Source: a virus (taxonomy: Duplodnaviria; Caudoviricetes). From it: 64,000 nucleotides of DNA. Below the pieces are notes generated by a model. It did not search any database. It saw nothing but the letters and a program-made list of their open reading frames with translations, and was not told where the DNA came from. Below, one piece after another: positions 19,394 to 51,198 of the stretch. The stretch covers positions 64,001 through 128,000 of the IMG/VR virus record IMGVR_UViG_3300020048_000009; one strand, written 5' to 3'. A program made the position numbers and the translations under genes. Positions within the stretch are counted from its first letter, which is position 1. Every line of letters starts with the position of its first letter.

Positions 19394-19470
19394 GAGCTCG
19401 TAGAGGAAATGGTTAACTCATGTGGTTTTCATCCACAAGATTGCCGGTTCGAATCCGGTCGGGCTTACCA
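19394..19470 (+). tRNA. trnE: tRNA-Glu(TTC)
   Basis: Cloverleaf; TGTGG-TTTTCAT-CCACA; CCA. Confidence 0.92.
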
Positions 19471-19561
19471 TATAAGCATGACGACTAGACTAGCAATGCT
19501 TTCAGCTTATAGCTAAACTAGTGACACGGCGGAGAGCACGTCGGACAATTTTATAATTTAT

Positions 19562-19647
19562 GGATAGGTGCTCCTGAATGGTAAGGGGACGGTCTTGAAA
19601 ACCGTAGGCTAACCCCACTGCACGTTCGATTCGTGTCCTATCCTCCA
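19562..19647 (+). tRNA. trnS: tRNA-Ser(TGA)
   Basis: ACGGT-CTTGAAA-ACCGT; long V-arm; CCA. Confidence 0.9.
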
Positions 19648-19694
19648 ATTTGTGGCGCGTCACGGTGTGTGTATAAGTCGCTTCGATTTATTAT

Positions 19695-19772
19695 GGGGCC
19701 ATAACTCAGTCCGGCTAGAGTGTCTCCCTTGCACGGAGAAAGTCGGGGGTTCAAATCCCTCTGGCTCCACCA
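19695..19772 (+). tRNA. trnA: tRNA-Ala(TGC)
   Basis: G3:U70; TCTCC-CTTGCAC-GGAGA; CCA. Confidence 0.95.
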
Positions 19773-19776
19773 ATTT

Positions 19777-19868
19777 GGCTGCATTCCGGATGCAGTCGGA
19801 TCAATTCACCTGATGTACTAGAGCGAGTCAGGAATTATGAAACAGTAAAATTCTGTATCGGTCTGCCA
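19777..19868 (+). ncRNA. Structured RNA ending in CCA, not a cloverleaf
   Basis: GCTGCA/TGCAGT hairpin; CGGATC/GGTCTG; CCTGA/TCAGG; ACAG/CTGT. Confidence 0.4.
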
Positions 19869-19876
19869 ATTTATGT

Positions 19877-19952
19877 AGAACGTTCGCGTAGTGGTTAGCG
19901 CACTAGACTGTCGATCTGGATTTCACGGGTTCGATTCCCGTACGTTCTGCCA
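19877..19952 (+). tRNA. trnD: tRNA-Asp(GTC)
   Basis: CTAGA-CTGTCGA-TCTGG; G73; CCA. Confidence 0.92.
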
Positions 19953-19962
19953 TTTTAATTTA

Positions 19963-20039
19963 CGGAGTGTGGAGGCAATTGGCTGCCCACGTGCCTTGGA
20001 CGCATGGTTATGTCGGATCGTTCCCGACCACTCCGACCA
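19963..20039 (+). tRNA. trnP: tRNA-Pro(TGG)
   Basis: CGGAGTG/CACTCCG; CTTGGAC loop; atypical T-loop ATCGTTC. Confidence 0.9.
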
Positions 20040-20052
20040 ATTTTTCTAGAAA

Positions 20053-20127
20053 GCCAACTTGACTGAATGGTTAAGTACCTCATTTGTAATGAGACCCATA
20101 ACGGTTCGATCCCGTTAGTTGGCTCCA
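20053..20127 (+). tRNA. trnT: tRNA-Thr(TGT)
   Basis: GCCAACT/AGTTGGC; TTTGTAA loop; CCA. Confidence 0.9.
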
Positions 20128-20220
20128 TATTTTATATACGAAAGTAATATATTCTAAAACCGGTACTTTCTTTTCAAATATGTATACCGGCTTTAATAAA
20201 TAAAATTAAAGGAATATATT

Positions 20221-20946
20221 ATGAATACAGTAATTTGTCCAATATGTGGAAAAGAATACAAACAATTAATAGCACAACATATTTTTAAACACGGTTTGAC
20301 TATTGAAGAATTTAAACTTAAATTTCCAGATTTTTATTTAGGTAGTCCGGGTATTGAAAGTACTAGAAAAGAAAAAATGGTACTTCAATATGAAAAAGAT
20401 AATATACGATGTAAACATTGTAATAAATTAATAACATCACCAAATAGAAAACATAGAATCTTTTGTAGTACTTTATGTAAAGCTACTTATTATTCTTTTA
20501 ACAAAGAGCTTGTTCAAACAAAAGGAAAACATTTTAAAAAAATCTGTTGTGCATGTAATAAAGAATATAAAGCCTTTAGAGATAATTCTAAATTTTGTTC
20601 TAATAAATGTCAACAAGAATATATTAATGTTCAAAAAATTAAAGAATGGAAAGACGCCACAGAACAGGGAAAACCTTTTCCCTATAGAAAATGGATAAGA
20701 CATTATCTTTTTAAAAAATATGATAACAAATGCTGTAAATGTGGGTGGAGTAAGATTAATCCTTTTACAGGAAATGTTCCTTTAGAACTTGAACATATTG
20801 ATGGTAATTCAAATAACAATAAAGAAGAAAATTTAGAATTGTTATGTCCCTGTTGTCATGCCTTAACTTCCACATATAAGGGTGCAAATAGAGGTAATGG
20901 AAGATTCTCTAGAAGACAAAGATACCAAGAAGGTAAATCTTATTAA
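20221..20946 (+). mobile_element. HNH homing endonuclease with Zn-finger N-terminus
   Basis: CCKCG...LELEHIDGNSNNNKEENLELLCPCCH; ATAAATA upstream. Confidence 0.88.
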
Positions 20947-20957
20947 TAAAATTTAAT

Positions 20958-21031
20958 GCGTCTGTAGCTCAATGGTCGAGCCCGTCCTTGCCAAGGATGT
21001 TATACGAGTTCAATTCTCGTCAGATGCTCCA
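20958..21031 (+). tRNA. trnG: tRNA-Gly(GCC)
   Basis: TTGCCAA loop; U73; CCA. Confidence 0.92.
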
Positions 21032-21040
21032 ATTTAAAAT

Positions 21041-21115
21041 GTTTAATATGAGCTAATGGTAAGCTTCCAGGTTTAAAGACCCAGAGTATATAGGTTCAAC
21101 TCCTATTATTAGATA
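21041..21115 (+). pseudogene. Degenerate tRNA, anticodon unresolved (TAA or TTA register)
   Basis: D-arm and ATAGG-TTCAACT-CCTAT T-arm intact; anticodon stem mismatched; no CCA. Confidence 0.55.
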
Positions 21116-21120
21116 TTTAT

Positions 21121-21195
21121 GCGTTTGTAACTCAATTGGCAGAGTGCTGGGCTTCCAACCCGGATATACGGGATCATACCCCGTCAGATGCTCCA
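21121..21195 (+). tRNA. trnG: tRNA-Gly(TCC)
   Basis: CTGGG-CTTCCAA-CCCGG; T-loop ATCATAC. Confidence 0.88.
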
Positions 21196-21201
21196 TTTAA
21201 A

Positions 21202-21275
21202 GCGATGTTAGCAAAATGGTTATGCGGCGGTCTGCAAAACCGCTTACATGTGTTCAATTCACATACATTGCTCCA
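21202..21275 (+). tRNA. trnC: tRNA-Cys(GCA)
   Basis: GCGGT-CTGCAAA-ACCGC; U73. Confidence 0.92.
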
Positions 21276-21285
21276 TTTTATTTAT

Positions 21286-21361
21286 GCTCTCTTATTTCAG
21301 TGGCTAGAATGCTTCCTTTACACGGAAGAGGTCAGGAGTTCGAATCTCTTAGGGAGTACCA
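21286..21361 (+). tRNA. trnV: tRNA-Val(TAC)
   Basis: CTTCC-TTTACAC-GGAAG; CCA. Confidence 0.92.
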
Positions 21362-21367
21362 TTTTTT

Positions 21368-21444
21368 CGAAGTATAACTCAGTTGGTTAGAGTACCTGTC
21401 TGATACACAGAATGTCGGTGGTTCGAATCCATCTACTTCGACCA
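21368..21444 (+). tRNA. trnI: tRNA-Ile(GAT)
   Basis: CTGATAC loop; CGAAGTA/TACTTCG; CCA. Confidence 0.92.
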
Positions 21445-21451
21445 TTTTATT

Positions 21452-21535
21452 GGGACTGTGGCGTAATGGCAGACGCGCTGGTTTTAGACACCAGTGGAGA
21501 AATCCGTGAAGGTTCAAGTCCTTTCAGTCCCACCA
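21452..21535 (+). tRNA. trnL: tRNA-Leu(TAG)
   Basis: CTGGT-TTTAGAC-ACCAG; V-arm GGA-GAAA-TCC; A73. Confidence 0.92.
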
Positions 21536-21564
21536 GTTTTGTTTCATTAAAGCATATAATATCA

Positions 21565-21636
21565 GTGTATAAAAGCCAATGAATATACTACTATATTAAT
21601 ATCAATTACGCAATTGATACTGTTCTTTGAATAACA
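21565..21636 (+). promoter_or_regulatory. Promoter + hairpin + boxA-like site
   Basis: GTGTAT-N18-TACTAT; ATCAATT-acgc-AATTGAT; TGTTCTTTGAATAAC at 21621. Confidence 0.65.
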
Positions 21637-21646
21637 ATTTTTAAAT

Positions 21647-21735
21647 CGCAGGGTGGCGTAATTGGCAGCCGCAGCGGACTTAAAATCCGCTGGGTGGTAA
21701 CACCCGTGAGGGTTCGAGTCCCTCCCTTGCGACCA
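21647..21735 (+). tRNA. trnL: tRNA-Leu(TAA)
   Basis: GCGGA-CTTAAAA-TCCGC; long V-arm; CCA. Confidence 0.92.
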
Positions 21736-21994
21736 TTGATCCTTAGTTAGAAGATTGTGTTCTGTCAGCCCATCAAGATAGACGTTTGAGATCATGCCTC
21801 TTCTGGAACAAGTATATAAACTTTAAGCCTTTGAGCGGACAGGTTTATATTAAGTGAAATCCTTGATGGTCGGCGGTGTATTCCAGTCTTTTGTTTTAGT
21901 ATGATATTAATGTTTTCGTTACCTGACCGTTGGACTAAGTGCACTTCGTAAGAAGGCTCCAATCAATCAGCTTCTCCATTAACCAGCAGCATAT

Positions 21995-22071
21995 AGGCGT
22001 GTAGCTCAGCTGGTTAGAGCGGGATCCTTATAAGGTCTAGGTCGCTGGTTCAACTCCAGCCACGCCTACCA
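21995..22071 (+). tRNA. trnI: tRNA-Ile(TAT)
   Basis: GGATC-CTTATAA-GGTCT; AGGCGTG/CACGCCT; A73. Confidence 0.85.
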
Positions 22072-22088
22072 TTTTTTAGAAAGTAATT

Positions 22089-22238
22089 ATGCTTTATTAT
22101 TGGACAAGAGTTTATAATACAGGTGCTGCCCATTATTGGGAAGTAGAAAGTGAAGAAGCTTTACTTATCGCTGCAAAAGAAAAGTATGGTGAATCACTTT
22201 TTGATTATGGAATGACAACTCAAAAGAAAACAAAGTAA
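22089..22238 (+). CDS. 49-aa hypothetical protein
   Basis: Hand-translated ORF between tRNAs. Confidence 0.45.
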   Translation: MLYYWTRVYNTGAAHYWEVESEEALLIAAKEKYGESLFDYGMTTQKKTK

Positions 22239-22250
22239 ACAATTTTTAAT

Positions 22251-22332
22251 GGGAATGTATCTCCCCCGCCTTCTAAGCGGACGTTAAAAGAGTAATTGGA
22301 GTATGCAGGTTCGATCCCTGTCTTTCCCGCCA
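22251..22332 (+). ncRNA. Rearranged tRNA-Arg(TCT)-like RNA lacking a positional D-arm
   Basis: GGGAATG/CTTTCCC-G-CCA; CCGC-CTTCTAA-GCGG; GCAGG-TTCGATC-CCTGT. Confidence 0.7.
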
Positions 22333-22417
22333 TTTTAGCTAAGAGTAGTAAATATTTAATTTACTTATATATTTAAGCTGCGCTTTTAATAAATAAAATT
22401 AAGGGTATAACTTAAAT

Positions 22418-22924
22418 ATGAAAAATAAATGTCATAAATGTAATGTAGATATTCCAAACAGGGTTAAAATAGATAACTGTTGGAAAACAATTAACCATAG
22501 AAAATTTTGTTTAATCTGTTCACCGTGGGGTAAACATAATACTAAAAGCGTGGATCCTTCTAAAAGAACGCTTTCAGAAAAAGAAAGACATTCCTGGAAA
22601 AATTTAACAGATAAACAAAAAACATGTCATAAAACATCACAACATAAGAGAGCCGTTAAGCGTAAGGTTGAACTTATTAATATGCGAGGTGGGAAGTGTG
22701 AAAGATGTGGTTATGATAAATGTATTGATGTATTTCATTTTCATCATATAGATCCATCGTTAAAAACCATGAACATGGGATTAAATTCTCTATGGTGTAA
22801 ATCATGGGAAAAGATTTTACAGGAATTTGAAAATTGTAAAGTATATTGTTCTAATTGCCACATGGAAGTGCATTATGAATTAAAAAATCCTGATAATAAA
22901 CAATGTACTTTAATTTCAAAATAA
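22418..22924 (+). mobile_element. HNH homing endonuclease
   Basis: GGKCERCG...FHFHHIDP...CKVYCSNCHMEVH; ATAAATA upstream. Confidence 0.85.
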
Positions 22925-22936
22925 TATGATTAGCCA

Positions 22937-23007
22937 GTGTATAAAAAGAAGAGATTATCATATTATATATCTATCAAGTATGTACTTGAGCATGTTCTTT
23001 GACAATT
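22937..23007 (+). promoter_or_regulatory. Promoter + hairpin + boxA-like site
   Basis: GTGTAT-N18-TATTAT; TCAAGT-atgt-ACTTGA; TGTTCTTTGACAATT at 22993. Confidence 0.65.
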
Positions 23008-23029
23008 AATAGCAAATGATTTTTTTAAT

Positions 23030-23114
23030 GGAAGCGTGGCCGAACGGCTAGGCATCGGACTTTTAATCCGAGGGAGAAATCCTAACGCAGGTTCGACCCC
23101 TGTCGCTTCTACCA
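23030..23114 (+). tRNA. tRNA with Lys(TTT) anticodon on a class II long-V-arm body
   Basis: TCGGA-CTTTTAA-TCCGA; V-arm GGA-GAAA-TCC; 3-bp D-stem; A73. Confidence 0.85.
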
Positions 23115-23132
23115 TCTTTTTAGTTTTCAAAT

Positions 23133-23206
23133 TGTCCCATAGTGTAATGGCAGCACAGCACCCTTTGACGGTGTTTGTATTGGTTCAAGTCCAGTTGGGA
23201 CAACCA
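23133..23206 (+). tRNA. trnQ: tRNA-Gln(TTG)
   Basis: GCACC-CTTTGAC-GGTGT; T1:A72. Confidence 0.92.
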
Positions 23207-23208
23207 AT

Positions 23209-23282
23209 ATTCCCATGTTGTAAAGGATGCATGCGGCGCTACGAACGCTTCGGTTGGAGTTCGAATCTCTATGGGAATACCA
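23209..23282 (+). tRNA. trnR: tRNA-Arg(ACG)
   Basis: CTACGAA loop; ATTCCCA/TGGGAAT; CCA. Confidence 0.85.
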
Positions 23283-23287
23283 TTTTA

Positions 23288-23346
23288 AAGACGCAAACAG
23301 CAATTCAAATAAAAATTCACTGTTAATGAAAAAAAAAACGCGTCTT
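23288..23346 (+). ncRNA. Anticodon-stem-loop mimic (Asn GTT) in an AAGACGC/GCGTCTT stem
   Basis: TTCA-CTGTTAA-TGAA at 23316-23330. Confidence 0.5.
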
Positions 23347-23354
23347 GTTTTTAT

Positions 23355-23429
23355 AGTAGAGTAGGCAAGTGGTAATCCGCCTCCCTGTTAAGGAGGACAG
23401 CGCTGGTTCGATCCCAGCCTCTACTGCCA
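23355..23429 (+). tRNA. trnN: tRNA-Asn(GTT)
   Basis: CCTCC-CTGTTAA-GGAGG; G73. Confidence 0.92.
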
Positions 23430-23432
23430 CTT

Positions 23433-23555
23433 TGGGAACAGATGGTTAGCGCCATTTGGCATATTTATTCATGTAGTATGCCTAACCCATTTATATTTTT
23501 GATAAATAAAATAGAGGTTACGCTAAGAACCTCTTTAAAATAAAGGTAAAATAAT
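23433..23555 (+). ncRNA. Endonuclease-leader structured RNA, copy 2
   Basis: Loops TTAGCG (23446-23451) and CGCTAA (23521-23526). Confidence 0.7.
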
Positions 23556-24236
23556 ATGATTAATAAATTAGATGAATCATGGAAGCAAGTAAACGGTTTA
23601 TATAAATGTCCAATATGTAGTAAAGAGTATTCTAAAAAAGGAATTTGTTCGCATATCTTTAGATCACATACAAAAGACGGTAAATATAATTCTTTTAAAG
23701 ATAATAACAGATTATATACTTCATCGTGGAATAAAGGTTTAATAAAAGAAACAGATCTTAGAATCAAGAAATCTGGTGAGAAACTTAAAGAAAGTCTTAA
23801 CTCTGGTAAAGTAATACCACCACAAACAGGAAAACCTATTGCTCCTGAAATAAAAGCTAAAATATCCAATACGATGAAGATTGCTCATAAAGAAGGAAGA
23901 GCGTGGAATATTGGAAAGTCTAGATGGAATAACAAAGCTTCATATCCAGAAGAATTCTTTATGAAGGTTATTGAAAATGAATTTGAGGATAAGAATTATA
24001 TAAGAGAATTTAATGTTGGTATTTATTCTATAGATTTTGCATGGACCGATAAAAAGTTAGCTATAGAAATAGACGGACAACAGCATAAACGATTTGAAGA
24101 ATATAAACAGAGAGATCTTCGGAAAGATGAATGTTTATTAGAGAATGGATGGAAAGTTCTAAGAATTTTATGGATTGATATGTATAAGGATCCACACAAG
24201 TGGATTAAAATTGCTAAAGATTTTATACATAATTAA
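23556..24236 (+). mobile_element. Putative homing endonuclease, DUF559/Vsr-like nuclease with C2H2- and NUMOD-like N-terminus
   Basis: CPICSK..HIFRSH; YSIDFAWTDKKLAIEIDGQQH..RD..L..NGWKVLRI. Confidence 0.82.
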
Positions 24237-24249
24237 GAATTTTATTAAT

Positions 24250-24325
24250 GCGATTGTAGCTCAGTAGGCAGAGCGTCGGACTCTTAATCCGAAGCGCGTG
24301 GGATCATAGCCCTCCAGTCGTACCA
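24250..24325 (+). tRNA. trnK: tRNA-Lys(CTT)
   Basis: TCGGA-CTCTTAA-TCCGA; T-loop ATCATAG. Confidence 0.88.
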
Positions 24326-24363
24326 TTTTGATGTACAAGATCAGATAGACATGAGAATTTTAT

Positions 24364-24437
24364 TGCGCGGTTGAGGAGAGGCCCCTCTGCAGGCTCATAA
24401 CCTGCCTACGCCGGTTCGAATCCGGCCTGCGCAACCA
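24364..24437 (+). tRNA. trnM: tRNA-Met(CAT)
   Basis: GCAGG-CTCATAA-CCTGC; CCA; initiator vs elongator unresolved. Confidence 0.88.
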
Positions 24438-24446
24438 ATTTAACAA

Positions 24447-24597
24447 CACGGCGTGAGGAAAGAACTTGTTCTATGATTCTTAATTCGATTCTAGTAAGAT
24501 AGTACTGTCTGAACGAGGATGTTATTAAGCGGAGAACAGAAATCCTACCGGAAACATGTCCGGAAATCGCAGGTATCGAATCCTGTCGCCGTAACCA
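24447..24597 (+). ncRNA. 151-nt initiator-tRNA-like RNA with 83-nt D-loop insertion
   Basis: C1:A72 mismatch; AGGA/TCCT D-stem; CCGGA-AACATG-TCCGG; T-arm; A-CCA. Confidence 0.65.
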
Positions 24598-24603
24598 ATT
24601 TTA

Positions 24604-24679
24604 GGAGTTTTGTTGTAGATGGTTCGCAAAACGGTCTGAAAAACCGAAGGATAGGGTTCGATCCCCTGAAACTCCACCA
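24604..24679 (+). tRNA. trnF: tRNA-Phe(GAA)
   Basis: CTGAAAA loop; GGAGTTT/AAACTCC. Confidence 0.9.
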
Positions 24680-24690
24680 TTTTATTTTCT

Positions 24691-24778
24691 GGTAGTTTAT
24701 TCCGTAGGTAGTCTCGGGGCGCACTGTAAATGCGCTGGCTAATACCCTAAGGTAGTGCAACTCTATCAACTACCACCA
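24691..24778 (+). tRNA. trnY: tRNA-Tyr(GTA)
   Basis: GCGCA-CTGTAAA-TGCGC; long V-arm; T-loop TGCAACT. Confidence 0.88.
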
Positions 24779-24783
24779 GCTTT

Positions 24784-24920
24784 AAATAAGGACAGATGGT
24801 TAGCGCCATTTGGATGTTTTTCATATGACACGCCTAACTTATTTAATTATTTTTTCATATTTTTTGATAAATAAAATAGAGGTTACGCTAAGAACCTCTT
24901 AAAAATAAAGGTAAAATAAT
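24784..24920 (+). ncRNA. Endonuclease-leader structured RNA, copy 3
   Basis: AAATAAG/CTTATTT closing stem; loops TTAGCG and CGCTAA (24886-24891). Confidence 0.7.
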
Positions 24921-25457
24921 ATGAGTAAAAAATTAATTGATCGCATCGGTGCTGATAAAATCATTGAAGTCTGCAAATCTGCAAAAACATTTAAAGAAGC
25001 ATGTGAAAAACTTAACTGTGGTTATAGATATTTAATGACAGCAGCCGTTGAATTAAATGTTTTCGATGAGTTAAAGTCTAGATCTAAAGAATTTGCACAT
25101 AAATTTAAAAAGGCTGATGGTTCAAGATTATGGTTGATTAAAACTAATACGGGACAAGGCTTTACATCATACAGAACTGATACTAAAATTTGGTGTGAAG
25201 AACTTTTTAAAGGAAATCATACATCAACCGCTGTTAGAATTAAAACACATTTAATTAATGCTGGGTATAAAGAAGATCATTGTGAATGCTGTGGTATTAA
25301 TGAATGGAACAATAAGCCAATAAGTTTACAATTACATCATATAGATGGAAATTCTAGAAACAATCAGTTAGATAATTTAAAAATTCTTTGTCCTAATTGT
25401 CACGTTCAAACAGATAATTATGGTTCTAAGAATGCTCGAAATAAAGAGCGCGAGTAA
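24921..25457 (+). mobile_element. HNH homing endonuclease
   Basis: CECCG...LQLHHIDGNSRNNQLDNLKILCPNCH. Confidence 0.88.
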
Positions 25458-25473
25458 AGATTCCACCATTTTA

Positions 25474-25545
25474 GGGCAGCATGAAGGTACAAGCTCTACC
25501 TATAACTTAGGTACCTGGTGAGTTCAATTCTCATCCTGTCCACCA
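25474..25545 (+). pseudogene. Degenerate tRNA-like RNA with CCA
   Basis: GGGCAG/CTGTCC; GTGAG-TTCAATT-CTCAT; non-canonical D and anticodon regions. Confidence 0.55.
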
Positions 25546-25551
25546 TTTTAT

Positions 25552-25628
25552 GTAGCAGTAATTCAAGAGATAGAAATGCTGGGGTAATTCCTGGCGTGTT
25601 GTTGGTAAAAATCCAGCCTGCTACACCA
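25552..25628 (+). pseudogene. Degenerate tRNA-like RNA with CCA
   Basis: Perfect GTAGCAG/CTGCTAC-A-CCA; T-loop TAAAAAT; no valid anticodon loop. Confidence 0.55.
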
Positions 25629-25630
25629 CT

Positions 25631-26064
25631 TTCAGTTGTAATTCAAGCCATGTCCGATAGGGTACTTCTATATGAGCGCGCCCTATTTGTAAAGAATGAG
25701 ATAGACGAGAGTCGGCCGTAAGAGAATCCTCTGCAGGGGTTCAAAGACTAAAGACTCAGGAGGAACGTGTTACGTGAAATCCTCATTGACAAAGATCCCT
25801 AATGAACGGGAATGATAGTAAGTTAGTAAGAGAGATATTTGTGATTATGCCTTTAGTGTAACGGTTAGCACGTGGGATAATTCCCTTAGATCGGTTCGAC
25901 TCCGCAGGAAAAAACAAATCACATACAGAACCTTGTGAAATCCTTATATGGTACCTATCCAACTGAGCCATTCCAAGAATCCCCAGAGACGGTGTAGTAG
26001 GGATATACGAAGCAACACATTCATAGGCCTATCGGTGTTGTTGTAGATAGGACAAGACCGTTTC
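25631..26064 (+). ncRNA. Large structured RNA (about 430 nt) with embedded tRNA-like domain and 3' pseudoknots
   Basis: TTCAGTTG/CAACTGAG; GATAGGGTAC/GTACCTATC; GAGACGG/CCGTTTC; CCTATC/GATAGG; GCAACAC/GTGTTGT. Confidence 0.65.
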
Positions 26065-26069
26065 ATTTT

Positions 26070-26206
26070 TATACTGAGTAATGTAGAGAATTGGCAAATC
26101 AGCGGGCCAGTAGGCAAGTCTTAGAGATGCTGAAATCCGGCGGAATAACATTAGCTGGTAAGAGGTTATTCATTTATGGGTTCGAGTCCCATCATTATTC
26201 AGTGTA
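26070..26206 (+). ncRNA. tRNA-like RNA on a 14-bp closing stem with expanded anticodon region, no CCA
   Basis: CTGAGTAATG/CATTATTCAG; AATTGG D-loop-like; ATGGG-TTCGAGT-CCCAT. Confidence 0.55.
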
Positions 26207-26237
26207 TTTCTTTTTAAATTTAGTTATAATATAATTT

Positions 26238-26546
26238 ATGAAAACCAACAAATTTGTTTTTGAAATCAGTGTTGAAGGCCCAGGTTATAATGAAGAAAAT
26301 GTAGAAGAACTTTATGGTGAAGGTGCCATGTATAATCCAGATTTTTCAGAACACTCTGTAGTCATGGATGAGGTCTATGAAATCTTTAAGGATGCATTAA
26401 TGCAGCGAATGGAATTTAAAATGAATGCATTAATTAAACCTGTTCCAAATGAAGCAGCACAAAAAGCTTATCTAACTCATGTTGATGCAGCAATTGAGCT
26501 TTATAGAAAAGTTCAAGGAAGTTTAAAATTCGTTAGAAAAGAATAA
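26238..26546 (+). CDS. Hypothetical protein
   Basis: Behind GTGTAT-N17-TATAAT promoter at 26202. Confidence 0.65.
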   Translation: MKTNKFVFEISVEGPGYNEENVEELYGEGAMYNPDFSEHSVVMDEVYEIFKDALMQRMEFKMNALIKPVPNEAAQKAYLTHVDAAIELYRKVQGSLKFVRKE

Positions 26547-26552
26547 TTTATG

Positions 26553-26684
26553 GGGGTTGTTGGCTGAATAGGCATAAGCAGGGCACAAGAGGCCTGACAA
26601 AGCATAAAGGCATGTAGAAAACCGGCCGGGAATATTCTATATGTACTGTGCAGCGTGGAGGTTCGATTCCTTCCAGCCCCACCA
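26553..26684 (+). ncRNA. 132-nt tRNA-like RNA with giant variable arm
   Basis: GGGGTTG/CAGCCCC-A-CCA; class II D-arm; CATGTAGAA/TTCTATATG helix; GGAGG-TTCGATT-CCTTC. Confidence 0.65.
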
Positions 26685-26690
26685 ATTTAT

Positions 26691-26765
26691 ATAGCAGTAG
26701 TTCAATTGGCAGAATGGCGATCTCCAAAAGCGATGAAGTGGGTTCGATTCCTGCACATCCTGCCA
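26691..26765 (+). pseudogene. Degenerate tRNA-Trp(CCA)
   Basis: CTCCAAA loop, D and T arms present; acceptor strands ATAGCAG/ACATCCT do not pair. Confidence 0.6.
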
Positions 26766-26770
26766 TTTAT

Positions 26771-26849
26771 GGTAGTATTAGCTTAGTCTGGCCTAAAGCT
26801 ACGGACCGTGACTCCGTGATCGTGGGTTCGAATCCCATATACTTCCCCA
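26771..26849 (+). tRNA. trnH: tRNA-His(GTG)
   Basis: G-1:C73; ACGGA-CCGTGAC-TCCGT (C33). Confidence 0.85.
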
Positions 26850-26855
26850 AAATTA

Positions 26856-26922
26856 ATTCATAATTCGATCCCACTATTTGATAAATAAAATAAATATCAA
26901 ATAGTGGGATCGAATTATGAAT
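26856..26922 (+). repeat. Perfect 28-bp inverted repeat enclosing a late promoter and burying the next ATG
   Basis: ATTCATAATTCGATCCCACTATTTGATA / TATCAAATAGTGGGATCGAATTATGAAT. Confidence 0.9.
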
Positions 26923-27858
26923 ACTTTATTAATAAGACATTGTGAAAATTGTGGAATAGAACATGATGGAACATATGGATCTGGAAGATTTTGTTCTAAA
27001 GAATGCGCTAGAAGTTTTTCTTCTAAATTAAATACAAACATACGAAATGAAAAAATTTCAAAAACATTAAAAAATAAACATATTAGAGAAACTATATGTA
27101 AAAAATGTGGAACTATTGTATATACAAAGGGTTCTAGTCCAAATGTATGTTGTGACAAATGTAGACAAAAAAGAAAAAGCAATACCCCCTATTGTAATAG
27201 ATGTGGTGCCGAACGTGGAAAATGTAAATATCCATCTTTATGTAAAAAAAAGTTAAAATTATTTGATGGATTAGAAAAATATTTTGGATTTGATAAAACA
27301 AGTTTTGGGTCGAAAAGATATTATGAAGAAATCTTTAGAATAAAAGCAATGATAGAAGAAGATTATTATGAAAATAATAACTCAACAGTTGAATTATGTA
27401 AAAAATATAATCATACAGCATGTGGTAGTTTTATAAGAATACTAAAAAGCATTGATATTGTATTAAGAAATTTAAAAGAATCTTCATTACTGGCATATAA
27501 AACTGGTAGATCTGTTATATCAATAGATAATAGTACTCAATATAAACATGGGTGGCATACTGCATGGGATAACACACAAATATTTTATAGATCTTCATAT
27601 GAACTTGATTATGCTGAAAAATTAGATGAGCAAAAAGTAAAATATGACGTCGAAGCTTTAAGAATATCTTATTTTGATACTCAAAAATGTATAGAAAGAA
27701 CGGCAATTCCTGATTTTTATCTTCCTGAAACTAATACTATAGTTGAAATAAAATCTTCATGGACATATAATGAACAGAATATGAATGATAAAATTAAAGC
27801 TTATAAGAAGCATGGTTATAATTTTAAACTAATTTTAGATCATAAGGAAGTTGTTTAA
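26917..27858 (+). mobile_element. Putative homing endonuclease, TnsA-like PD-(D/E)xK domain with Zn-finger N-terminus
   Basis: CENCG..GSGRFCSKEC; FYRSSYELDYA...PDFYLPETNTIVEIKS. Confidence 0.75.
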
Positions 27859-27927
27859 AAAATTTATTTTTTTGCGTATAATTATAGTATACAAATAAAT
27901 TGTAATACAAATAAGGAAAACAATATT

Positions 27928-28068
27928 ATGTTAAAGAGAGATAAGCTCGGTAGATTCGTTGCTGCTAAGAAAGCACCTAAGGCTAAGCCCTGTGCACCAT
28001 GTAAACCTTCCAAGAAGGATTCATGTAAACCTTGCGCACCTAAGAAAACAAAGAAATGTTGTAAGTAA
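27928..28068 (+). CDS. 46-aa Lys/Cys/Pro-rich peptide
   Basis: MLKRDKLGRFVAAKKAPKAKPCAPCKPSKKDSCKPCAPKKTKKCCK; AAGGA RBS. Confidence 0.6.
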   Translation: MLKRDKLGRFVAAKKAPKAKPCAPCKPSKKDSCKPCAPKKTKKCCK

Positions 28069-28331
28069 TTTTCAACGTTTAGATAAATAAAAATATCAAA
28101 CCTGCGGTGCCTCTATTCGGGTGGATTTATTCCTTCGTACTGAATATGCATAATTCCGCGGGTATTTTATTTCAGGTGTACTTTTTAAATAAATCCGTGT
28201 ATTATATAATCATAACAAGTTAAATGGAGATGAGACAATGGATATTCCTTTTGCAGAATTAATGATTAAAGCTGGAGAATTGAACAAAGATACTTTCGTA
28301 ATCGATGTTGATACTCTTAGGAGATGGTTAG

Positions 28332-28547
28332 ATGAACAAAATCAAAAAGAATCAAACACAATGTAATTGTGAATCCCAATGTAATTGGGAAGTTCAAGGA
28401 ATGTCTCCTTCTCCCATACAGAATAAAACAATTGTTTTTAGAATGTCATGTGATGGTAAATACTTTACGACAACTACAAATGAAGTATCAACCCTCACCA
28501 TCTGCCCTCACTGTAATCAACCCATAACTCACCTAAACAAGGTTTAA
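28332..28547 (+). CDS. Zn-ribbon hypothetical protein
   Basis: CPHC near C-terminus. Confidence 0.55.
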   Translation: MNKIKKNQTQCNCESQCNWEVQGMSPSPIQNKTIVFRMSCDGKYFTTTTNEVSTLTICPHCNQPITHLNKV

Positions 28548-28551
28548 CATT

Positions 28552-28983
28552 ATGCGTACACAAATAGAAGGTATAAAATACGAGATGCCTGATGGCTATT
28601 ATCGCGTGACTAATAAGCTCGATATGGCCAGACGTGATGATTTAGTTTGGGGATCTTGTGAAGACCTATGGTCTAAACCTACAGGAAGACTTGATCTTGT
28701 TGGTAATTATTATGCGGTTATCCGTAAAGGTGTGAAACCTCCAAAAGTAATTAAAGAGAATTCTAAACCACCAGCTTATATAAAAGTTACTTCAGTTGAT
28801 GATATCAAAAAATATAATCTTAAAGAAGGTTCTAAGATTATTATAAACGATTTGAAATATACAATCGTTAAAATCCATTCAGCTGGTAATTATGGTTGGG
28901 GATTGTTAAGCCAACAATTTGCTATTTGTCTTATCACATCAAAACTTGAGCTTTTAATAAGCGCTTATACTCTTGGTATATAA
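28552..28983 (+). CDS. Hypothetical protein
   Basis: Co-oriented ORF. Confidence 0.65.
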   Translation: MRTQIEGIKYEMPDGYYRVTNKLDMARRDDLVWGSCEDLWSKPTGRLDLVGNYYAVIRKGVKPPKVIKENSKPPAYIKVTSVDDIKKYNLKEGSKIIINDLKYTIVKIHSAGNYGWGLLSQQFAICLITSKLELLISAYTLGI

Positions 28984-28989
28984 TTTAAT

Positions 28990-29081
28990 GGAAGTGTGGC
29001 CGAGCCTGGTTTATGGCGGCTGATTACTAATCAGCAGGGGCCTTAAAACCCCCGTAGGTTCAAATCCTATCGCTTCCTCCA
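28990..29081 (+). tRNA. trnS: tRNA-Ser(ACT)
   Basis: GCTGA-TTACTAA-TCAGC; V-arm GGGG/CCCC; U73; followed by terminator. Confidence 0.85.
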
Positions 29082-49329: not shown

Positions 49330-49743
49330 ATGCCTAAAATACCAAATGATGTTTTCTATTCAGAGATTGCACAAACTATCGCTAAGCGTTCATATGCTAA
49401 ACGTAAGCAGGTGGGAGCTGTCGCAGTAAAGGATAATAATATAATAGCCTATGGCTACAATGGCATGCCAAGCGGTATGGATAACGTTTGTGAAGACCAA
49501 AATGGTGAGACTAAACCCGAAGTGCTTCATGCTGAATTAAACCTTATATGTAAATGTGCTAAAGCTGGAATTTCTTTAGAAGATTCTACAATATATATAA
49601 CACTCTCTCCCTGTATAAATTGTGCCAAATTGATTTTACAGTGTGGTATTAAAAATGTTTTCTATATTCAAGAGCATACTAATTTAGAAGGTATACATTT
49701 TCTAAAAAATAATGGTATTAATATCGAACAAATCTTGAAGTAG
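49330..49743 (+). CDS. cd: dCMP deaminase
   Basis: QVGAV..GYNGMPSG..HAELN..LSPCINCAKLI. Confidence 0.9.
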   Translation: MPKIPNDVFYSEIAQTIAKRSYAKRKQVGAVAVKDNNIIAYGYNGMPSGMDNVCEDQNGETKPEVLHAELNLICKCAKAGISLEDSTIYITLSPCINCAKLILQCGIKNVFYIQEHTNLEGIHFLKNNGINIEQILK

Positions 49744-50292: not shown

Positions 50293-51198
50293 ATGGGTTA
50301 CGCACATATTGAAAATTTATATAAGAATACATTGATTCTTCAGTTTAAGAAATGTTATGAGATGGAAAAGACTCATGGAACATCTGCACATATCAAGAGA
50401 AATAAAGACGGAACTATTACTTTTTCTTCAGGTGGAGCATCACATAATGTTTTCGTAAGTCTTTTTAATGAAGAGGAACTTAAAGCAAAGTTTATTGAAC
50501 ATTTCGGTGGTGTTAGTACTGTTACAATATATGGTGAAGCTTATGGTGGTAAGGAACAAGGAATGCGCCTTACTTATGGTGATAAGTTATGCTTTATTGT
50601 TTTTGATATTTCTGTTACCAATGATGACAAAGAACTTTGGCTAGATGTTCCAGTTGCTGCAGATTTTGCAGCTAAGATGGGATTAGAATTTACACCATAT
50701 TCAGAAATTGAAGCGACACTTGAGAATATCAATGCTGCTAGAGATAAACCCTCAGAGGTTGCCGTTCGTAGAGGATGTGGAAATAACGTAGATAAGTTTG
50801 GTTTTAATCCTCCTATTAGAGAGGGTACTGTACTTCGTCCTCTAATCCAAGTGGTTGATATGTATGGAAACCGTATTGTTTCTAAGCATAAAAGAGATGA
50901 ATTTTCTGAGAGAGCTCAAACCCCTAAAGTAGAAGATGCTGCTAAAATTAAGGTTTTAGAGGAAGCAACAGCTATCGCAGAGGAATGGGTTACTCCAATG
51001 CGTCTTGAGCATGTTCTTGATAAAATGGGGAACACTAGAGATTTGCAGAAAATTCCTCAGCTTATCGTGGCGATGATTGAAGATGTATACCGTGAAGGTA
51101 AGGGCGAAATTGTAGAAAATAAAGATGTAGAAAAAGCTATCGGCAAGAAGGCGGTTCATCTTTTCAAAACATTGGTGAAGACAGAAAATCTTAAGTAA
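50293..51198 (+). CDS. rnl2: RNA ligase, Rnl2 family
   Basis: EKTHGTS (motif I), YGEAYG, FIVFDI, REGTVLRP, SKHKRDEFSE. Confidence 0.82.
   Translation: MGYAHIENLYKNTLILQFKKCYEMEKTHGTSAHIKRNKDGTITFSSGGASHNVFVSLFNEEELKAKFIEHFGGVSTVTIYGEAYGGKEQGMRLTYGDKLCFIVFDISVTNDDKELWLDVPVAADFAAKMGLEFTPYSEIEATLENINAARDKPSEVAVRRGCGNNVDKFGFNPPIREGTVLRPLIQVVDMYGNRIVSKHKRDEFSERAQTPKVEDAAKIKVLEEATAIAEEWVTPMRLEHVLDKMGNTRDLQKIPQLIVAMIEDVYREGKGEIVENKDVEKAIGKKAVHLFKTLVKTENLK

Follow-up and report, generated by a model that had tools for sequence, protein, structure and literature searches.

We analysed a window of 64,000 nucleotides that spans bases 64001-128000 of a 211,678-bp IMG/VR virus record (32.6% GC; 84% complete by the CheckV estimate). 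The window holds an array of tRNA genes, one of which joins the anticodon arm of a lysine tRNA to a long variable (V) arm (Table 1). This gene is a real, intact tRNA, and its score of 54.8 bits against the Rfam model, where the gathering score is 29, places it within the tRNA family. ARAGORN counted 24 tRNAs in the window and 25 in the whole record, and only this one of the 25 has the anticodon TTT; the statement in a preliminary description of this DNA that it is the sole UUU tRNA of the array thus extends to the whole record. HNH and DUF559/PD-(D/E)xK-type endonuclease genes lie between the tRNA genes (window positions 20221-20946, 23556-24236 and 24921-25457). Endonuclease genes among tRNA genes are also the pattern of T5 and T4-like phages. 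One such tRNA-array endonuclease, SegB, has been linked to tRNA gene amplification under defence pressure (PMC13096335). A promoter scan around 23030-23114 returned sites no more numerous than in shuffled sequence.

Table 1. Window coordinates of the long-armed tRNA gene, its surroundings and its cloverleaf parts.
Feature	Position	Strand	Source
Long-armed tRNA-Lys(UUU), 85 nt including encoded CCA	23030..23114	+	ARAGORN call; Rfam RF00005
tRNA array, 24 ARAGORN-called genes with interspersed HNH and DUF559 endonuclease genes; includes 23030-23114	19394..29081	+	
Companion class I tRNA-Lys(CUU), 76 nt, same anticodon stem as the Lys(UUU) gene	24250..24325	+	ARAGORN
Acceptor stem, 5' strand GGAAGCG, pairs with CGCTTCT at 23104-23110 (G1.U72, G2:C71, A3:U70, A4:U69)	23030..23036	+	ARAGORN drawing, segment parse
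D arm GCC-GAACGGCTA-GGC: 3-bp stem, G13/A22 unpaired, A14, A15, G18G19, short beta region without 20a	23039..23053	+	
Anticodon arm TCGGA-CTTTTAA-TCCGA; TTT at 23062-23064; U33, A37; 3' strand U39 C40 C41	23055..23071	+	
Variable arm GGGA-GAAA-TCCT + AAC: 3-4 bp stem, GAAA tetraloop, 3-4 unpaired 3' bases ending in C48	23072..23086	+	
T arm GCAGG-TTCGACC-CCTGT	23087..23103	+	
Acceptor stem, 3' strand CGCTTCT, discriminator A73 (23111), encoded CCA (23112-23114)	23104..23114	+	

Two tRNAs elsewhere in the array have A34 anticodons, which are unusual in bacteria: tRNA-Phe(AAA) at 21041-21115 and tRNA-Ser(ACT) at 28990-29081. Both fit preferred codons of the phage, TTT and AGT. The tRNA-Phe(AAA) is the weakest Rfam match of the array (38.7 bits), and a normal tRNA-Phe(GAA) lies nearby at 24604. 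A deaminase encoded at 49330-49743 was considered as a TadA for the A34 tRNAs and rejected, as it is ComEB/dCMP-deaminase-like. This gene adjoins one for an Rnl2-family RNA ligase (50293-51198), whose only solved relative is T4 Rnl2 (E = 6e-6). The ligase could serve the phage in tRNA repair; a search of the record for a PNK3P-type kinase-phosphatase (T4-type Pnkp; PF08645) returned no match.

In bacteria, long variable arms are by the textbook rule limited to Leu, Ser, Tyr and Sec tRNAs. The cloverleaf of the window tRNA has U8 and G9 between the 7-bp acceptor stem and the D arm, and A26 between the D arm and the anticodon arm. A D stem of 3 bp and the discriminator A73 had already been read from the DNA, and our parse agrees on both; it also agrees that the 17-nt anticodon arm and that of the tRNA-Lys(CTT) at 24250 differ solely in the wobble base. 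The gene does not have the class I body of canonical tRNA-Lys with its variable loop of 4-5 nt; its variable region, GGGAGAAATCCTAAC, is instead 15 nt long and folds as a hairpin. It does contain the identity set read by class II lysyl-tRNA synthetase (LysRS), namely U34, U35, U36 and A73, with a 7-nt loop that includes U33 and A37. Lysine identity resides in the three anticodon bases and A73, and transplanting UUU gives other tRNAs lysine acceptance (PMC9976931).

We searched for relatives of this tRNA in viruses. BLAST against 50,697 phage records returned annotated tRNA-Lys genes. Long versions occur in the cultured phages X1 of Xanthomonas (82 nt), Ursula of Citrobacter (79 nt) and BF of Serratia (87 nt), where they are annotated plainly as tRNA-Lys. 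One narrow pattern, GGACTTTTAATCC-N17-30-GGTTCRA, matched 108 viral contigs, which yielded 95 distinct long-armed Lys tRNAs, mostly UUU and some CUU. A73 is found in 78 of 96 long-armed Lys tRNAs, and the acceptor, D and T stems covary across the set. The V stem was not recovered by RNAalifold on the MAFFT alignment, in which arms of unequal length misalign, and V-arm structure was instead judged by folding each sequence against its shuffles. The V hairpins comprise 70 different sequences, and 64 of 96 fold better than 95% of their own shuffles. A stem of 3-4 bp followed by 3-4 unpaired bases, which is also the geometry in the window, was seen in 76 of the 82 folded long-armed Lys V arms. Of 109 loci, 88 have no UUU tRNA other than the long-armed one. 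Closer relatives of the window locus were not detected by megablast of window positions 22000-25000 against phages, by an exact 26-mer scan of viral contigs or by a protein-anchored search with a DUF932 gene; of two metagenome patterns, one gave no matches and the other matched only non-orthologous long-armed Lys tRNAs. One metagenome contig (L174:47-320) carries three consecutive long-armed Lys tRNAs, two UUU and one CUU, of 90, 87 and 83 nt.

Long-armed Asn, Thr, His, Cys and Trp tRNAs occur in the same arrays and keep their cognate discriminators, which are G, U/A, C, U and G, respectively (loci L005-L112, for example L005:9339-9421 and L005:9773-9858). This argues that the arm was added to cognate tRNAs, and not that anticodons were moved onto class II (Leu/Ser) bodies. 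The non-canonical long arms are concentrated on Lys, Asn, Thr, His, Trp and Cys tRNAs and are absent or nearly absent in Ala, Phe and Val. In arrays with an ordinary tRNA-Lys(UUU), long arms were observed only on Asn (4/19) and Met (4/30).

For working purposes, a long-armed phage tRNA-Lys was defined by a Lys anticodon loop, A73, a V region 12-20 nt long that forms a hairpin of 3-4 bp and leaves 3-4 bases unpaired on its 3' side, and location in a phage tRNA array. The window tRNA falls within this group. It is at most 79% identical overall to the closest member, its acceptor stem is unusual for the group, and most members have a longer D loop. A full-text literature search, which covered papers available without subscription, found no description of a long-armed tRNA-Lys in phages or bacteria, and reviews of non-canonical tRNAs treat allo-tRNAs, nev-tRNAs and others and do not include it. 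Taken together, these results show that the window gene is a divergent member of a widespread long-armed tRNA-Lys variant that is apparently undescribed in the literature.

The same design is found in cellular genomes. A pattern scan of 185,579 species genomes gave 52 matches; some 32 of them are genuine long-armed Lys tRNAs, and most of these belong to dense arrays on MAG contigs. A conserved single chromosomal long-armed tRNA-Lys(UUU) of 85-87 nt is carried by six Actinomycetota MAGs (Frankiales, Mycobacteriales and Actinomycetales; L322, L122-L124, L128, L129, L144), and in five of them it alone matches a pattern that catches class I or long-armed tRNAs with the CUUUUAA loop. Genome G001, a MAG of 4.0 Mb like the other key bacterial genomes in being metagenome-derived, has 46 dispersed tRNAs that cover all 20 amino acids. 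Among them, tRNA-Lys(UUU) is represented by a single gene, long-armed and 85 nt in length (L322, G001:C15:37160-37285), on a 359-kb contig where genes for DsbA, oxidoreductase and PPK2 adjoin it. The tRNA-Lys(CUU) of this genome is ordinary (74 nt). The V arms of the two tRNAs are both 15 nt long with the same layout (1 + 3 bp + GAAA + 4), C-GCG-GAAA-CGC-CAUC in G001 and G-GGA-GAAA-UCC-UAAC in the window. A cell that depends on a long-armed tRNA for AAA must lysylate that tRNA. The design is rare among these bacteria, the pattern being present in 2 of the 301 genomes sampled from the class.

No codon is more frequent in the phage than AAA, which makes up 73.5 of every 1000 codons and 79% of those for Lys. 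Lysines encoded by AAA in phage genes include three in Walker A motifs and, by alignment with T4 Rnl2, a motif V lysine of the Rnl2-family ligase. For the NAD-dependent DNA ligase (LigA) of the phage, we used 104 homologs below 60% identity and considered columns with a consensus of at least 60%. Fourteen AAA codons fall in conserved columns; 11 of these columns are K (3 invariant), and none is L or S. Leu or Ser inserted at AAA would thus damage the phage's own enzymes, and insertion of either by the window tRNA is unlikely. Two large ORFs upstream of the window depart from the general lysine preference: in a GroEL-like chaperonin gene (genome 58505-60145; L171) it is reversed (AAG 30, AAA 12), and in a second ORF (genome 27412-28836) it is near balance (AAA 19, AAG 15), while other large ORFs use AAA 4-17 times as frequently as AAG.

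To find a phage-encoded synthetase that might be adapted to the arm, the 212-kb record was searched with PF00152, PF00587, PF00133 and PF01921, and no match was returned. In the absence of a synthetase of these four families from the record, a host enzyme must charge the tRNA. On the sequence evidence, this enzyme is very probably the host LysRS, which would charge the tRNA with lysine. The lysylated tRNA would then decode AAA alongside the class I tRNA-Lys(CUU).

We compared the body of the tRNA with those of other phage tRNAs, using 1,338 tRNAs that ARAGORN called in 112 sequences (the window, three cultured-phage loci and pattern-found viral loci). A naive-Bayes classifier based on 41 positions, with the anticodon arm and V arm excluded, reached an accuracy of 66% in leave-one-locus-out trials when trained on 20 standard classes. 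It was then rerun with long-armed Lys as an added class, giving 21 classes, and with the window tRNA left out of training. The body-only score of the window tRNA was highest for long-armed Lys (32.3 bits); Ser (29.7 bits) trails by only 2.6 bits, followed by Tyr (26.6 bits), and Leu (10.0 bits) ranks 17th of 21.

The low rank of Leu bears on the earlier proposal of a Leu-type scaffold, with which the tRNA would be charged by LeuRS and insert Leu at AAA. LeuRS ignores the anticodon, and its determinants in E. coli include A73, A14, A15:U48 and 20a, of which the U48-type Levitt pair and 20a were found to be essential by SELEX (PMC9976931). There is also a precedent in the nematode nev-tRNAs, which have a class II body with a class I anticodon and are charged with Leu (PMC4033280). 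Among phage Leu tRNAs, A73 and A14 are each present in 44/44, A15:U48 in 42/44 and a 3-nt beta region with 20a in 37/42. The window tRNA is Leu-compatible in A73, A14 and A15, but it has A15:C48 and a 2-nt beta region without 20a. Its A14 and A73 are what is expected of a tRNA-Leu, yet both are also common to tRNA-Lys. In addition, none of the 44 phage Leu tRNAs has the A3:U70 pair of the window tRNA. The count of unpaired nucleotides that separate the V stem from the T stem, which determines how the arm is oriented, is mostly 1 in Ser, 2 in Leu and 3 in Tyr tRNAs and is 3-4 both in the long-armed Lys tRNAs and in the window tRNA, so that the arm geometry is not Leu-like. As for the precedent, nev-tRNAs read rare codons and show low expression (PMC4033280), whereas the window tRNA reads the commonest codon, at which mistranslation would harm phage proteins. 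The Leu-type scaffold is thus contradicted, and a Leu-charged, mistranslating tRNA is the least probable of the readings considered, with very little chance of being correct.

The similarity that had suggested a Leu scaffold is real: the 10-mer GGAGAAATCC of the V arm is indeed shared with tRNA-Leu(TAG) at 21452. A comparison with 337 other long V regions located it in four long-armed Lys tRNAs, one long-armed Asn tRNA and no Leu tRNA, five occurrences in total. GGAGAAATCC consists of a minimal GC stem capped by a GAAA tetraloop; as it turns up again among the long-armed Lys tRNAs but in no Leu tRNA besides the neighbouring one, the match represents a simple recurrent hairpin and is no evidence of a shared scaffold. 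Borrowing of the V arm from the neighbouring tRNA-Leu(TAG) was likewise unsupported, given the same 10-mer in other long-armed Lys tRNAs; gene conversion is a conceivable source of the match. About one third of the phage tRNA-Leu genes in these arrays have no long arm (V of 9 nt or less; loci L002-L112, for example L002:5012-5085). Most of these short-armed Leu tRNAs keep A73, A14, A15:U48 (19/24) and the 3-nt beta region, and the retention of determinants without the arm fits a LeuRS that does not need it.

Charging by SerRS, with serine inserted at AAA, has more in its favour. The pairs G2:C71, A3:U70, A4:U69 and C11:G24 are present, which includes all three Ser-type pairs (G2:C71, A3:U70 and C11:G24); Ser is a close second in the body scores, and the nearest bodies include tRNA-Ser(ACT) of the window and other phage Ser tRNAs. 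Serine identity also lies mainly in the variable arm, and the anticodon is ignored (PMC9976931). Against this, E. coli SerRS reads tertiary shape (PMC9976931), and the shape of the window tRNA differs from that of a Ser tRNA. A Ser-type arm has a stem of mostly 4-6 bp and 0-2 unpaired 3' bases, compared with 3-4 bp and 3-4 bases here. The D loop lacks the 20a/20b insertions, and its beta region is 2 nt, compared with 4 nt in tRNA-Ser(ACT) of the window and in 21/48 phage Ser tRNAs (16/48 also have 2). The discriminator expected for Ser is G73, or U73 in many phage Ser tRNAs, and A73 is present in only 3/48. The use of AAA as the commonest codon and for catalytic lysines also opposes serine insertion, and we regard a SerRS-charged tRNA as highly improbable. 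A decoy, meaning a tRNA-like RNA that occupies defence nucleases or has some other non-translational role without efficient aminoacylation, is improbable too, if slightly less so. Some phage tRNAs are possibly decoys as well as supplements (PMC12409363, PMC13096335), but in this one the elements for translation are all intact (U8, A14, G18G19, U33, A37, the T loop, the 7-bp acceptor stem and CCA). Moreover, the phage record has no other tRNA cognate to AAA, the rest of its tRNA set follows the AT-rich codon use, and the same design serves a bacterium as its sole tRNA-Lys(UUU).

The reading that we favour, with a probability of about 0.75 as judged from sequence comparisons, is a functional lysine tRNA of unusual shape, whose extra arm would accompany an ordinary supply of lysine at AAA. 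The preliminary description had offered a nuclease-resistant tRNA-Lys as the alternative to a Leu-inserting one, and the tRNA-Lys part of that alternative is borne out by the Lys anticodon loop with A73, the long-armed Lys family, the use of AAA for Lys in phage genes and the bacterial sole tRNA-Lys(UUU) of the same design.

We next considered the role of the arm. That tRNA-Lys(UUU) is a frequent nuclease target, as stated beforehand, agrees with the literature on PrrC, RloC, AriB and bacterial Schlafen. PrrC is a defence nuclease that targets tRNA-Lys(UUU), and its relative RloC excises the wobble nucleotide (PMC2610378). AriB of PARIS cuts tRNA-Lys at 40|41, and an AlphaFold 3 model places it in contact with U16-U17 as well; its cleavage products have been reported in Lys, Thr, Asn and His tRNAs (PMC12409363). 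Bacterial Schlafen cuts at 30|31 (PMC13056530), and OLD, a TOPRIM tRNase like AriB, cuts host tRNAs after 27-29, with Thr(UGU) among the named targets (bioRxiv 10.64898/2026.07.10.737580). The arm is expected to project from the hinge beside the upper anticodon stem, where AriB, OLD and Schlafen cut. In this position it could block docking of the nuclease and leave recognition of the anticodon and acceptor end intact; for PrrC-type enzymes, which act on the anticodon loop, the arm may be no hindrance. The window tRNA also differs at the AriB contact sites (C40|A41 and U16-U17), since it has C41, and C16 without a position 17. The A41C change inhibits AriB cleavage of E. coli tRNA-Lys (PMC12409363).

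The extra arm may be an anti-defence adaptation, to which we give somewhat less than even odds. A neutral or structural role is about as likely. The latter would make the gene a genuine lysine tRNA whose arm is tolerated as an insertion, contributes to folding, stability or processing, or is of use to a modification enzyme. In line with this, one bacterium relies on this design for its sole tRNA-Lys(UUU), encoded in an ordinary part of the chromosome, and the arm is thus compatible with routine translation. Phage tRNA V lengths also vary both ways, as the short-armed Leu tRNAs illustrate. The tRNA-Lys(UUU) gene of T5 is of ordinary length (78 nt), and the resistance of this tRNA to AriB results from substitutions in a stem; evasion therefore does not require a long arm. 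What a role outside defence explains less well is a structured arm of constant geometry across at least 95 divergent sequences, and the restriction of long arms mostly to a few isotypes; those that most often have them include Lys, Asn, Thr and His, the tRNAs with reported AriB products. A broader proposal, which we put forward tentatively and consider rather doubtful in its full extent, is that the arm would be a general shape disguise against anticodon-stem nucleases on the most-targeted tRNAs (Lys above all, and Asn, Thr, His, Trp and Cys). Synthetases that read the anticodon and discriminator would still accept such tRNAs, and the form would have become the sole tRNA-Lys(UUU) of some Actinobacteria.

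A widespread long-armed lysine tRNA breaks the textbook rule on long arms and suggests that recognition of the LysRS type can accommodate a large extra structural element. A further possibility is that tRNA shape, beyond the sequence of the anticodon loop, is a battleground between phages and PARIS, OLD, PrrC/RloC and Schlafen. For annotation, it means that class II shape alone is no proof of Leu or Ser identity in phage tRNA arrays.

Compared with known systems, the window tRNA resembles class I tRNA-Lys(UUU) of the E. coli lysT type and T5 tRNAK(UUU) in the CUUUUAA loop, A73, the 7/5 acceptor/T architecture and presumed recognition by LysRS through the anticodon and A73. Its T arm is close to that of E. 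coli tRNA-Lys. It differs from these tRNAs in having a structured arm of 15 nt in place of a 4-5 nt loop, as well as a 3-bp D stem, a class II-like U8-G9 and A15:C48. T5 provides a functional parallel for a defence role: its tRNA-Lys(UUU), Thr(UGU) and Asn(GUU) neutralise AriB of PARIS (PMC11464382, PMC12409363), and its tRNA-Tyr neutralises retron-Eco7 and Septu PtuAB (PMC11555353, PMC13096335), resisting their cleavage through a distinct variable loop (PMC13096335). The tRNA-Tyr example sets a precedent for resistance decided by the variable region. Like the resistant T5 tRNAs, the window tRNA is a phage copy of an often-targeted tRNA that is unlike the cellular versions, and its C41 corresponds to the A41C change; T5 tRNA-Lys differs in that its resistance comes from two stem substitutions and not from an extra arm.

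With bacterial class II tRNAs, the window tRNA has in common a long arm with a stem and tetraloop, the 3-bp D stem and U8-G9. It is Tyr-like in its unpaired 3' bases (3 in Tyr) and Ser-like in its acceptor and D-stem pairs. Unlike these tRNAs, it has a class I anticodon and lacks the U48/20a of Leu, the arm geometry and G/U73 of Ser and the G34/A36 of Tyr. Both nev-tRNAs and allo-tRNAs likewise combine a long arm with an anticodon normally found in class I tRNAs. Allo-tRNAs require 8/4 or 9/3 acceptor/T helices (PMC7609411), and we rejected this assignment for a tRNA with 7/5. A nev-tRNA was also rejected: these tRNAs retain the identity elements of Leu, have low expression and decode rare codons (PMC4033280), whereas the window tRNA has Lys identity elements and reads the commonest codon. 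The same design, mostly with A73 and with an arm of 12-20 nt, is found in the long-armed Lys genes of phages X1, Ursula and BF, about 100 IMG/VR contigs and a few Actinomycetota MAGs.
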